A stretch of DNA of 64,000 bases from Camelus dromedarius (taxonomy: Eukaryota): NCBI RefSeq assembly GCF_036321535.1, contig NC_087436.1, positions 8,432,001 to 8,496,000 on the forward strand, in the 5' to 3' direction. Each line of letters opens with the position of its first letter. The stretch's first letter is position 1. Positions 55,720 to 61,829 of this stretch are shown here, piece after piece. The notes beneath the pieces are model-generated. The model ran no database searches and was not told the origin of the DNA. It was given only the letters and a program-made list of their open reading frames with translations. The translations under genes and the position numbers were made by a program.

Positions 55720-57715
55720 GGTCCTGCACTGTGACTGAGCAGCAGATTAGGAGTGGACTGTTGGGGACGGTTTCTAGGATTGACTCATGAAACTTCCTGT
55801 ACAGGATCTTCCATAAAATTTCCCTTTTCTTTGGACATGATCCAATGTGTCTGAAAGCCCAAGGGTTGAAAGACAGAGAACCTCAAGATTAAAGAAACCC
55901 TGGTGTGTAAATTACACCTAGGAAGAAAGACAGACCAGTCAAGAGCACAGTGTTGAAATTTACTTGAGTGATAAATGTCAGTCACATTTGAGTACTTGTA
56001 CATTTATTAGAGTAGCTAGTCTTACATGACCTTACACCAAAATTTTGGTAAAACTGAAGGAGACACAAAATGGCCTCCCTGATGCTAAGGCAGCTTACAT
56101 AGTTCACTGTGATGGGTTAACTTGTTTTCTCGGAGTTCCTTCTAACAGACCCACCTGTTTTATTCCTTGCTACTCTACTGTTTAACTTGCTTGAATGATT
56201 ACGTGCTCAGTCACCCCCAACCCTATGATTTACTCCCTCCCCAAAATAGCTTGTAACCAAAACCCAGAAGCAGTTTTCCAGGAAGAAGTTCATGGAATGA
56301 TAACACTGAAGGAACAACCAGATCCTCCAAGAGCCCCCATGACATGGGAGGGATCAGACCTGATATAGCCAAGGCTGCAGGGAGCGACCGGAAGTTCCCA
56401 CTGACACACAATAAACTTTTATAAAAGACTCTACTGTTCATTATCACTGATATGCTCCGTCCCATTTGCCTATACGATCACCAAGCGCCAACCCCAATAA
56501 GGAGTCACAGTTTCCAAGGCATGAGCCTGCCATGACTCCCCTGTGGGGGGCAAAGCAATAAAGTGGCTCTCTTCTTTACTCCCCAAGCTCTGCCACTGAG
56601 TTTGAATTCACTTTTTGGGGTGCAGAGGCTGATTTTTTGGCAACAAAGCTGGTAACTGGAAATGGCTTGTTCCCTTTACAGGCACCTAAAATGTGTGTCA
56701 TTGGCTTAGTGGTTGGATGACAGGTGGTAAGAAAATAGATATTGTAAATCTTGTAGCTGAAGATCTGGCAAAATGTTCAGGAAAACTATTGCCATTTAAT
56801 TGTTGAAAATTTTCAAAATAGACTATGTGCTTGCCTAGCCTAACTTCACAGAAATGGAGTTAAGACCAAGTGTGTATCGGCTATGATTGGCAGCTTTTAG
56901 CAAAGTACTGTAAGATATGAGATCAAGTAAGAATTGACTGGTCTTCAAATATAGACGCTAATAGAGGAAATAAAGAAATAAAGAAAGTCATGGGGTTGGA
57001 AAAGGCACCACCTCTAGATCACGTCTAGATCTAAGTCAAAAGATTTGAGACTGGAAAGACCCGATAAGACTCCTTTGTTGGATGATTGTCTTAGTCTTGA
57101 GAGAAAGATCTTTCAAACTAATACTGACATATCTGAATCCTTTCCTTCAGTTTACCCCAAATTAGCCAAAAATTAGTGGGATTAACTGTAATAGATTGAT
57201 AAAATAAATTAAAAAATACTGCAGATCTGAGAATTATGCACCGAGAACTTTGCATAGTTTTGCTGCCACATTTGGAAAAAAAAAAAAAAAAAGAGCAGAA
57301 TTCTAATACATTTTAGAGGAATTGTTTTCTTAAAGGAAAAAATAATCCAGAAAAAAATGGCTTGACTATTTTACTTCAAATCATCCCTTGGTGTTCAGAG
57401 TTGCCAAGTAGGAGGAACGCTATAAAAGTCACACACTACCAAATAGGTAATTTTATGCACTTCAGATGTAGCTTTGCAAAATAATAAACAAGGAAAAATT
57501 TGTCAGAATGAGGGAAAAAAAAAATCAAGCAATCCTGCAGAACAATGTAAAAGGAGGCCAATTAGGGAGGGTCCCAGTAAGATGATGCCCCAACAAAGCA
57601 GAAGTTTCTGCAGTGCCTAACCTGTAGGATGTTGCCATTGCTCTGGAAAAGTGATTTCAGTGTGCCTCTCATTCTTCATTTTCCCAGATTAAAATTTTTA
57701 TTATGGTCGTGTGAT
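55720..57715 (+). mobile_element. Decayed MaLR LTR plus MLT-internal sequence, interrupted by the LTR at 56055-56645
   Basis: An LTR-end-like tagagtagctagtc...ttaca is followed by aattttggta...actggaaatgg...acctaaaatgtgtgtcattggctt, resembling the start of MLT-int. Confidence 0.5.
56055..56645 (+). mobile_element. Solo LTR (ERV1-like)
   Basis: tgaaggagacacaaaatggcc...ttttggcaaca with TG...CA termini; AATAAA at 56557-56562; 4-bp TSD AAAC/AAGC with one mismatch. Confidence 0.85.
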
Positions 57716-58842
57716 AACCTTACACCTGCCACAATGGCTATCACCGAAAAGACAACAAATGACAAGTGTTGGCGAGGATGTGGAGAAAAGGAAACTCTTG
57801 TGCACTGTTATTGGGAATGTAAATTGGGGCAGCCCCTATGGAAAACAGTATGCAGAGTCCTCAAAAACGAAAAACAGAATTACCATATGACCTAGCAATT
57901 CCACTGCTGTGTCTTTATCTGAAGAAAACCAGAACATTAATTAGAAAAGATATGTGCACCTTTATGCTTATCGCAGCATTATTTATAATTACCAAGATAC
58001 AGAAGGAACTTAAGTACCCATCAATGGTTGATTGGACAAAGAAGATTTTGTATATATAATATATAACATAAGTTACTCAGCCATTAAAAAAAAGAATAAA
58101 ATCTTGGCATTTATGAGAACATAGATGATTTAGAAGATATTATGTTAAGTGAAATATTCAGATAGAGAAAGATAAATTCTGTACGTTTTCACTCATGTGG
58201 AATTTTAACAGCAAAATATATGAACAATCATAACAAATAATAAACAGGGAACAAAGAAGCGGTTTCCAAGAGAGACGGGGTGGGGGGAGGAAATAAGTGA
58301 AGGAGATGAAGAGATACAAACTTCCAGTTATAAAATAAATGAGTCATGGGTATGAAGTGTACAATGTGGGGAAGATAGTCAATAATTATATTGTATCTTT
58401 GGTAACAAATCATAACTAGACTTATTGTGGGGATCATATTGAAATGTATAGAAAATTTTAAATATTATGTTGTGTAAGAGAAACTAACATTGTATTGCAG
58501 GTCAGTTATATTTCAAAAAGCAATAAATAAATAAAAAAACAAGCTCAAAGGGAAAGAGATCAGATTTGCGGTTACCAGAGGCTGGGGTAAAGGGGTGGAC
58601 ATTTAAAGGTACAAACTTCCAGTTATGAGAAAAATAAGTACTAAAGAGGTAATGTACAACATGATAAATATTAACACTGCTGTATGTTTATATATGAAAG
58701 ATGTTAAGAGAATAAATCCTAAGAGTTCTCATTACAGATTTTTTTCTATTTCTTTAATTTTGTTTCTATACAGGATAATAGAGATTCACTAAACTTGTGG
58801 TAATCATTTCATGATGTATGTAAGTCAGATCATTATGTTGTA

Positions 58843-58947
58843 GTGCTCGCTCCAGCAGCACATACTAAAATTGGAATGATACAGAGAAGATTACCACAGC
58901 CCCTGCGCAAGGATGACACACAAATTTGTGAAGCGTTCCATATTTTT
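58843..58947 (+). pseudogene. RNU6: U6 snRNA processed pseudogene (full length), 5' part of a U6/L1 chimera
   Basis: GTGCTCGCTCCAGCAGCACATACTAAAATTGGAATGATACAGAGAAGATTACCACAGCCCCTGCGCAAGGATGACACACAAATTTGTGAAGCGTTCCATATTTTT aligns end to end with canonical U6, with the ACAGAGA box intact. By eye it has 8 substitutions (4 at CpG) and one 2-nt deletion. The upstream sequence is L1, not a U6 promoter. Confidence 0.98.
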
Positions 58948-59818
58948 AAAATGCTCAATATCACTAATTATCAGAGAAATGCAAATCAAAACTATGATGA
59001 GGTATCACCTTACACCAGCCAGAATGGCCATCATTCAAAAGTCCACAAATGACAAATGCTGGAGAGGCTGTGGAGAAAAGGTAACCCTCCTTCACTGCTG
59101 GTGGGAATGCAGTTTGGTGCAGCCACTGTGGAAAACAGTATGGAGATTCCTCAAAAGACTAGGAATAGACTTACCATATGACCCAGGAATCCTGCTCCTG
59201 GGCATATATCTAGAAAGACTCCAACTTCAAAAAGACACCTGCACCCCAATATTCATAGCAGCACTATTTACAATAGCCAAGACATGGAGACAGCCTAAAT
59301 GTCCATCAACAATGACTGGATAAAGAAGATGTGGCAATTTATACAATGAAATACTATTCAGCCTTAAAAACTGACAACATAAAACCCATCTGCAGCAACA
59401 TGGATGTTCCTGGAGAATGTCATTCTAAGTGAAGTAAGCCAGAAAGAGAAAGAAAAATACCATATGAGATTGCTCATAAGTGGAATCTAAAAAAAAAAAA
59501 AAAAATACAAAACAGAAACAGACTCATAGACATAGAATACAAGCTTGTGGTTGCCAAGAGGGCGGGGGTGGGAAGGGACAGACTGGGCTTTCAAAATGTA
59601 GAACAGATAAACAAGATTATACTGTATTGCACAGGGAAATATATACAAGATCTTATGGTAGCTCACAGTGAAAAGAAATGTGACAATGAATATATACATG
59701 TTTATGTATAAATGAAAAATTGTGCTCTACACTGGAATTTGACACAACATTGTAAAATGACTATAACTCAATTAAAAAAGTTTTAAAAAATAAATAAAAA
59801 AATAAAAGGTAAAAAAAA
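58948..59818 (+). mobile_element. Young camelid-type L1 3' end (ORF2 C-terminus, 3' UTR, A-rich tail) fused to U6
   Basis: Peptide [72 protein letters not shown]-rich tail at about 59770-59818; shares the TSD ATCATTATGTTGT with the U6 part. Confidence 0.96.
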
Positions 59819-61829
59819 ATCATTATGTTGTGTATCTTAAACGTGTACAGAGTTGTATGTCAATTATATCTCAATCAAACCGTGAGACAGTGAACAAACA
59901 AGCCAACAAACTTGCACAATGTGTTATAATGTAATAGTCGTGACATTCTCAATGTCATTATAAATGGGTACAACTAAGATGGTTTGCTTTTCAATTTAAT
60001 ACTTTATTCCTCATTCCTCTGACCTTAATTTTATGAAAATCTCAAAGCTGAACAAAAGAAATTTTTTAAAGGCATACTGTAATATTATTCATTTCTGTTT
60101 GCAGTTGTGTACTATATGAGACATTAAATACTCTCAGTAAGTACTATTTACTACGATCAGTCCTGGAACTTGCTGGCCTTGGGGTCCTCACTGTGGTCTC
60201 TCAACTCATCTTCTCTGTCTCTCGAACTCCAGTTTTCCATCATCTACTAAAAATCTGATGCAGATTTGTCTACTTTAATAAACAAATAAATATAATAGCA
60301 TCTAGGGACAATCAAAGGAAATGCAGTGTTTCTTTTTATCCTCAACAGAATTACTAAAATTAACAAGGATGCTGATTAGACGCTTGGTAAATGTAGTAAT
60401 GGCACAGTGTGTATGTTTACAAAATGCTCCTATTAAATGACGTTAGGGGAAAGACAAAATTGTGAAGTTTTTATTGCAGTAAATGCTAATGTCTCTTTTG
60501 ATTTGAAATCCATTAATGAAAAAAATGTGGAAACAGTTCAATATATATATTTGAACTATATGTCATGAAAGAAACTGTCCATGCAGAACACAGGTATCAG
60601 TGGAAAAATGATAAGTGCTTTCATCAATTTTGCCTTATCATGCACAAATCTAATGTCATTGTGAAGCCACTGAACGGTTTAAGTGGAATGAGTCCTTTAT
60701 AATGTAACATTTGTGGCAGTACAAATACTTTCAGATAGTTCAGGCAGAAATGTGCTGACGCTCCTATTGTCTGATTATTCTTTCCAAACCCAGGGGCAAG
60801 GTTTTACTAAGATTTATGTATTTTATGTGGCTCTGAAGTATTTCACAACTTATTTACTGCTTTGGTGAGCTTCATTATACATTTATTATTATCAAAATAT
60901 GCTCTTGAAAGTACTGTATTTTTATATTTGGGGAGGCTTCACATACAACATGCACTTAACTAATGACATTTTTCAGTTCTATTATTCATAAAAATTTCTA
61001 TAGCTCATCCCTCATGAATAGCAAGAGAACTCTTTATGAAAAGGAGGGAACTGTTTATTTATATCTCATCAGCAGAGTTGCTTGCAGGTTGCAGTTTTTA
61101 ACTGACAAGTCCAGTTTTTCAGAATAAGGGAATGTAAACTCACACTGCACCATTTCGGGATCCTAAAAGATTCCTAAAAGAACTATTATACTTTTAAAAA
61201 TAAGTATCCGATATGAAATTATAAATGCTTAAATATTTTAAAATTAAAAATAAAAGTTAAAACTGTGTATGGCACACTTTGTCCTTTGTTCATAGCTGCC
61301 CTCACTTTGAGGTATATTAATTAAAACACTACTTTGAGAGTGACAATCATCAATATGGTTTTGTTATTTTTTACTAACAAGTCTGTTTTGAACTGTGTCT
61401 TTGAATTTTCCAACCTGAAATGTAAAATAAACTTTGAAAATCATTGTACTAAGTTAGAACAGTAATCCATCAATTTTTGTGCTGCAACTATTAATTGTGT
61501 ATTTTCGAGATGGCACAACATTCTGCAATGATGCCAAACTCAAAAGTTACAACAGTGTCCAAATATCTGTATTGTGTTATGATACATTTAAATATTTATG
61601 ATAAATATATTTATCTAATAATTTGCCCTTACCAGAGCTGAAAACATCTGTTGATAATTGATACTCAAAAGAGTAATGATATTTGTAACTGAATGAGGGG
61701 GAGTAGATCTTTACTGAAGAAGCTTCCACAGTAATAGAAGGTAGATACAGGAATCCAGTATACTGAATAAAATACATTTATGTTCTGTTTGTTAGTAGTC
61801 TACAAGATCCTCTATAATTTGCACTAATA

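Follow-up and report, generated by a model that had tools for sequence, protein, structure and literature searches.

Within 64,000 nucleotides (64 kb) of the dromedary genome (Camelus dromedarius, contig NC_087436.1, positions 8,432,001 to 8,496,000 of the forward strand), the stretch that was analysed as a whole and is called the window below, a copy of the U6 small nuclear RNA (snRNA) is joined to the 3' end of an L1 (LINE-1) element, and the two together lie inside an older L1. This unit is, with high probability, a U6/L1 chimeric processed pseudogene that was made in one L1-driven integration. All its parts are on the plus strand, and coordinates are positions in the 64 kb window; the features are as follows (TSD, target-site duplication; UTR, untranslated region).

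57714..58828, +, older host L1 upstream of the insert, consisting of the end of ORF2 and the 3' UTR (assigned by similarity to the insert and by paralogs)
58829..58841, +, 5' copy of the TSD, ATCATTATGTTGT (exact 13-base repeat; both copies map to one 13-base segment in paralogs of the host family)
58842..58842, +, single A between the TSD and G+1 of U6 (14th position of the TSD, or a nucleotide gained at the 5' junction)
58843..58947, +, full-length U6 snRNA retrocopy ending in T5, a pseudogene (RF00026; comparison with the U6 genes of the genome)
58948..59490, +, C-terminal remnant of L1 ORF2, starting inside an A6 run of L1 (ORF2p match; L1 relatives supply the sequence 5' of the break)
59491..59790, +, L1 3' UTR (unbroken alignments of genomic L1 copies)
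59791..59818, +, A-rich tail of the insert (direct reading)
59819..59831, +, 3' copy of the TSD, ATCATTATGTTGT (exact 13-base repeat; paralog mapping)
59832..59885, +, older host L1 downstream of the insert, the last part of its 3' UTR (continuous with the upstream flank in paralogs)

The U6 part was identified with cmscan against Rfam, where RF00026 matched 58843-58947 (+) over its entire length (model positions 1-105 of 105) with 96 bits, compared to a gathering score of 44, and an E value of 1.5e-23; no other Rfam family was found in the 64 kb window. The first base of the copy is G+1, its alignment with the U6 genes of this genome begins at U6 base 1, and the 3' end reads CCATATTTTT, which is followed directly, in the same orientation, by AAAATGCTC of L1. 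The four unflanked U6 genes of the genome (L001, L010, L011, and L012) are mutually identical, and relative to the genome's U6 genes the window copy carries 8 substitutions in 105 positions and a 2-base deletion (~92% identity). Half of the substitutions (at positions 10, 12, 37, 54, 57, 58, 80, and 87) are at CpG and the other four outside; positions 53-55, which read AGC in the genes, presumably the catalytic triad, are ACC in the window. Functional U6 genes have a type 3 RNA polymerase III promoter with a TATA-like box near -30, and such a box precedes all four unflanked genes. The window copy has neither an intact sequence nor a TATA-like box upstream, where the host L1 3' UTR is found; it is a dead copy of moderate age, with no sign of a function.

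The L1 part spans 871 bases (58948-59818) and has the same orientation as U6. Its frame 58949-59320 consists of 124 open codons that, in a search of Protein Data Bank (PDB) sequences, align to residues 1093-1215 of human LINE-1 ORF2p (E 2e-56), and a Pfam scan of this 124-residue stretch found no family. The ORF2 remnant is disrupted by a frameshift near 59318-59320 and by three premature stops upstream of the stop of the L1 frame at 59488-59490. Of 11,580 candidates from a first look, 40 L1 copies were given scores; these align unbroken over positions 1-843 to 1-871 of the 871, mostly ending at ~843-859, with 89-93% identity, and the 3' end of the L1 part is complete with an A-rich tail, in keeping with the class of U6/L1 chimeras. 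Because genomic copies align without a break across the internal A run at 59489-59505, where ORF2 of the inserted L1 ends and its 3' UTR starts, this run belongs to the L1 lineage and is not a second tail. Further downstream, positions 59560-59587 hold a G-rich tract of four to five runs, with a motif of four runs of at least three G at 59560 detected by motif search. ViennaRNA with its quadruplex option places a quadruplex in this tract; we rely on the motif alone and do not use the fold as support.

Across the break between the two parts, 9 of 9 related L1 copies continue from ...CACATGAA on the 5' side into AAAATGCTCAAT on the 3' side. The break follows the second A of the A6 run of L1 and the preceding base is A, not T, such that, judged by these nine copies, the joint has no microhomology and no overlap with the T5 of U6. 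When a 231-base probe covering flank, U6, and junction was compared to the 2.3 Gb assembly, its only full-length match was itself. The next match, L032 (G000:C8:73763545-73763707, minus strand), is a second, older U6/L1 chimera, in which the L1 part represents an older family, is 76% identical to that of the window, and starts 8 bases further 3'. Among 13 junctions in the ORF2 region, ~1.5 pairs this close are expected by chance.

The unit as a whole is bracketed by ATCATTATGTTGT, which has only two matches in the window at no more than one mismatch, compared to 0.26 expected. No other repeat of at least 10 bases was found at the U6/L1 joint, and neither U6 alone nor L1 alone is flanked by a duplication. 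As for the host element, its segment 57714-58046 is 73% identical to the ORF2 part of the insert, and the segment 58560-58841 has paralogs at 77-83% identity. Two probes, the 100 bases immediately before the insert and the 82 bases that start with the 3' repeat, were mapped to 29 paralogs of the host L1. In 26 of these, the two flanks fall on a single uninterrupted stretch and share exactly 13 bases (with alignment ends projected); one paralog differs through an indel, and two have no downstream match. Inspection by eye shows a single 13-mer in each of the 29, after which comes the homolog of 59832 onward. At the position of 58842, 25 of the 29 paralogs have A, and the 3' flank in the window has G at 59832; the position preceding the repeat holds A in 23 of the 29, and the window has G at 58828. 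Given that both the A at 58842 and an A before the repeat are the majority state of the host family, the duplication may originally have comprised 14-16 bases.

Because T5 abuts L1 without poly(A) or a second repeat, a single 13-base repeat encloses the unit, and the corresponding sites in the paralogs are continuous, we attribute the locus to one event. This anatomy bears out an earlier prediction that was made from the letters of the window (the original prediction) and that described a full-length U6 from its +1 G, joined without a spacer and in the same orientation to ~870 bp of an L1 3' end, with the junction at the oligo(T) end of U6 and no microhomology, a 13-bp direct repeat around the whole unit, a continuous older L1 3' UTR once the insert is removed, and thus a single integration nested in an older L1. 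Two further points fared differently. A survey of U6 junctions across the genome was proposed there as a way to see whether the L1 breakpoint recurs; we reject such recurrence: the probe has no second copy, and the proximity of L032, 8 bases away, is compatible with chance. The description of the inserted L1 as young holds only relative to the host L1; otherwise it is contradicted by the identity of at most 92-93% among the 40 scored copies, the 8 substitutions and 2-base deletion of U6, and the frameshift and three stops of the ORF2 remnant. The best of these copies correspond to a divergence of 7-8%, and the two parts of the unit have decayed to a similar degree (8/105 substitutions in U6, 4 of them non-CpG), which also speaks for a single event. 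Other chimeras of the genome have U6 parts with 0-2 differences and L1 parts that are 97-100% alike. Given the substitutions and deletion in U6 and the 7-8% that separate the L1 part from its nearest copies, the insert is younger than the host L1 but not young.

The junction in the window is typical of its kind. We classed the 30 best-scoring of 48 scored U6 copies of the genome into 4 genes, 15 chimeras with at least 69 bases of L1, 3 chimeras with only the last 4-22 bases of L1, 6 U6-poly(A) copies, and 2 copies with other sequence next to U6. In 7 chimeras the L1 part starts with a base other than T, and in all 7 the T tract is exactly T5, so that T5 without microhomology, the configuration of the window copy, is found in every unambiguous chimera of this set. 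Among the genes, L010 and L011 form an inverted pair ~1 kb apart (G000:C5:38224218-38224324, plus strand, and 38225287-38225393, minus strand) and share identical sequences over 30 bases upstream, including the TATA-like box, and 60 bases downstream.

A wider sample of junctions was obtained with the pattern GTGAAGYRTTCCATATTTTT, which has 95 matches in the genome (0 for the reversed control); the 110 bases downstream of all 95 were read. Right after the T tract, 61 of the 95 match one of three L1 references, with 1-2 cases doubtful and two pairs that look duplicate. Junctions were placed by the first 22 bases, ungapped, with at least 16 matches, and their positions are counted from the final base of GGGAAGGG (window 59577). 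This procedure placed 39 junctions between -52 and +116, and 15 of these fall within the 17 bases from -2 to +14 (binomial tail 2.6e-6), that is, into a hot zone at the 3' edge of the conserved quadruplex-type G tract in the L1 3' UTR; the second sample alone has 7 of 29 junctions in the zone (p = 0.022). As a control, plain L1s were found with a 20-mer located just 3' of the zone, which has 7,033 matches in the genome, and 75 bases upstream were read for the first 100 of these: the tract is traversed in 84, whereas the L1 ends in the zone in 5, within the tract or at its 5' edge in 8, and between the zone and the motif in 3. For comparison, we took 19 chimeras of the same L1 types that include the 20-mer region, with the ends of both chimeras and controls classed by eye. 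Breaks in the zone occur in 8 of these 19 chimeras vs 5 of 100 plain L1s (Fisher p = 7.8e-5), such that chimera junctions are found in the ~20 bases at the 3' edge of the tract roughly eight times more often than the 5' ends of plain L1s.

The hot-zone region corresponds to 59560-59592 of the window and to the equivalent positions in L002, L006, L008, L018, L020, L026-L028, L103, L104, L116, L124, L136, L139, and L152. Plain L1 5' ends have a cluster of their own at the 5' edge of the G tract, where 7 of 100 lie within ~7 bases (L165, L191, L193, L199, L207, L212, and L223; contig C1); none of the 19 comparable chimeras ends there. Six loci with a T5 end, L003 and L019 as well as L079, L082, L130, and L146 among the 95 pattern matches, continue into sequence that matches none of the three L1 references, and they could represent genes or chimeras, the partner in the latter case being another RNA or an L1 family outside the references. 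The L1 part of U6 chimeras has been reported to be truncated more often than genomic L1 (Law and Burns, PMC13174262). A hot zone such as the one described here is not mentioned in the main texts of Moldovan et al. and Doucet et al. or in passages of Law and Burns, supplements aside, and literature searches brought up no mention of one either.

The anatomy of the unit and its origin in a single event are evident at the locus; for the order of the steps, we infer a course from the established model of target-primed reverse transcription. Under this model, ORF2p would have nicked the 3' UTR of the older L1 and primed cDNA synthesis at the poly(A) tail of an L1 RNA, of which 871 bases would have been copied, up to the A6 run in the C-terminal coding region of ORF2. 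The complementary DNA (cDNA) strand would then have continued straight into a complete mature U6 snRNA with 5 terminal U and run to the first base of U6, and the second-strand steps would have left the duplication of 13 bases, possibly 14-16 originally.

The sequence of events could in principle have been longer, with a 5'-truncated L1 inserted first and a U6 retrocopy landing later exactly at its 5' end, or the reverse. Nesting is indeed common here: the whole unit is inside an older L1, and L024 (G000:C30:2595181-2595287, minus strand) is a U6-poly(A) retrocopy nested within an L1 3' UTR that, with its short AATTTAC-type duplication, could pass for a chimera. However, the window copy has no poly(A) after U6 and no repeat around either part alone, the single exact 13-base repeat encloses both, and the T5 of U6 touches L1 base for base, as is also the case for 15 of the genome's 30 best U6 copies, so that two insertions are very improbable. 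A misjoin in the assembly, or a secondary copy produced by segmental duplication or by retrocopying of an already chimeric locus, has a precedent of sorts in U6/L1 junctions that occur twice with identical flanks. In the pairs L153/L154 (C37:111149346, C38:17242058) and L120/L143 (C15:9136785, C36:13785812), the first 75 bases after the U6 end look the same, except that L120 and L143 differ at one base of the 75 read; these pairs are segmental duplications or redundant assembly pieces. In the window, by contrast, the 231 bases of flank, U6, and junction are single in the assembly, and both copies of the TSD and the flanks of the host L1 fit base for base. Moreover, 76-79% of the sampled 31-mers from 58400-60300 (1901 bases) are present in 20 sequencing runs from 11 studies under two organism labels, and because this share could not exceed ~0.48 without the 990-base insert, the reads support the insert; we consider a misjoin or secondary copy extremely improbable. 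Several points nevertheless weigh against the interpretation as an L1-driven chimera formed in one event by a given route. The undisturbed target site is seen in paralogs of the host family rather than in an ortholog; the reads speak for sampled words over the stretch and not for the junction itself; and the nick site, AG/ATCA as it stands, matches only 2 of 6 positions of the L1 endonuclease consensus TT/AAAA, a match that improves to 4 of 6 (TC/AAAT) only on the assumption that 58828 was then A, the base found in 23 of the 29 paralogs. Finally, the features of the locus do not tell ligation from template switching; the chemistry of RNA ends is not preserved in DNA.

The last point concerns how the joint was formed within the single event, and here T5 without microhomology, being the norm of the class (7 of 7 unambiguous chimeras) and predicted by both models, does not discriminate between them; the suggestion of the original prediction that the junction fits the ligation model loses its force accordingly. 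Ligation by RtcB of U6, which ends in a 2',3'-cyclic phosphate, to a cleaved L1 RNA before reverse transcription has, in our estimate, about an even chance of being the route taken. RtcB can ligate U6 with the cyclic phosphate to L1 RNA with a 5'-OH (PMC6789731). The other route, on which ORF2p would have left the L1 RNA in the A6 run and resumed at a free 3' end of U6, with no prior chimeric RNA, is a serious contender to which we give somewhat less than an even chance, and it concerns the formation of the joint only. Homopolymer runs are pause sites for reverse transcriptases, and the break in the window sits in such a run. Template switching is, furthermore, the classical model for the class and the explanation that Doucet et al. 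gave for U6/L1 structures (PMC4476161), and it is favored by the genome-wide pile-up of junctions at the 3' edge of the G tract, along with the behavior of purified ORF2p, which on the human L1 3' UTR yields predominantly short cDNA; this cDNA stops at the quadruplex-forming part and has the length of the cDNA obtained from a template without the quadruplex-forming bases 1-78 (Thawani et al., PMC10830416). However, U6/L1 chimeric RNAs arise in cells without L1 reverse transcription and are made by RtcB in vitro (PMC6789731), and the window junction is located 629 bases 5' of the hot zone. The pile-up would be explained by stalling of ORF2p and a jump to U6 or, equally, by a cleavage hot spot beside the tract. 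RNAs cleaved there would also yield plain truncated copies with that end. Both routes are still named as open in the survey of Law and Burns 2026 (PMC13174262). Pairing of the U tail of U6 with the A run of L1 as a splint for ligation was considered as well and was dropped on geometry, by inference only.

The hot zone bears on the choice between RNA ligation and template switching and may matter more than the locus itself. That ORF2p stalls at the quadruplex and then jumps to U6, which would make template switching a major route to chimeras alongside RtcB ligation, is possible but doubtful. If true, maps of the junctions would be a natural record of the stalling of the L1 reverse transcriptase in vivo, and the window copy, whose junction lies in ORF2, would be one of a diffuse minority.

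The locus adds one well-preserved example to a class that is catalogued across mammals, makes a clean teaching case, and could serve as a presence/absence marker after a comparison of orthologous loci. U6/L1 chimeric pseudogenes were reportedly first described by Buzdin and colleagues in 2002/2003. As the original prediction correctly stated, the class is a known one: it is Group IV of Doucet et al. 2015 (PMC4476161), and because Table 2 of that paper has a row for alpaca, it has already been counted in a camelid. That row gives 310 hits, 48 selected at an identity of at least 97.5%, and 36 analysed, of which 2 are alone, 6 are with a repeat, 27 are with poly(A), and 1 is truncated at the 3' end. 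The window copy, at ~92% identity to U6, is below this cut-off and older than the copies counted there. The published genomic chimeras consist of a full-length U6 with 5-7 T and a variably truncated L1, with duplications of 6-19 bp (Moldovan et al. 2019, PMC6789731).

The window copy is an ordinary member of this class, with which it shares a full-length sense U6 from +1, T5, a 5'-truncated L1 of equal orientation joined directly to it, the A-rich tail, and one duplication of 13 bp; nothing essential sets it apart, the deviations being the poor match of its nick site, as it stands, to the endonuclease consensus and its greater age than that of the copies counted by Doucet et al. With the U6-poly(A) pseudogenes, which make up the poly(A) group in the scheme of Doucet et al. 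2015, it has in common the source RNA, the L1 machinery, and the flanking duplications, but in those copies the A tail comes right after 3-4 T without any L1, whereas in the window 871 bases of L1 separate U6 from the tail. The chimeras of L1 with U3, U5, 5S, tRNA halves, 28S, and Alu (Law and Burns 2026, PMC13174262) are likewise bipartite products of one event with one duplication; in most of these, the small RNA is truncated, and it is frequently in antisense orientation, in contrast to U6, which is full-length and sense, as it is in the window.

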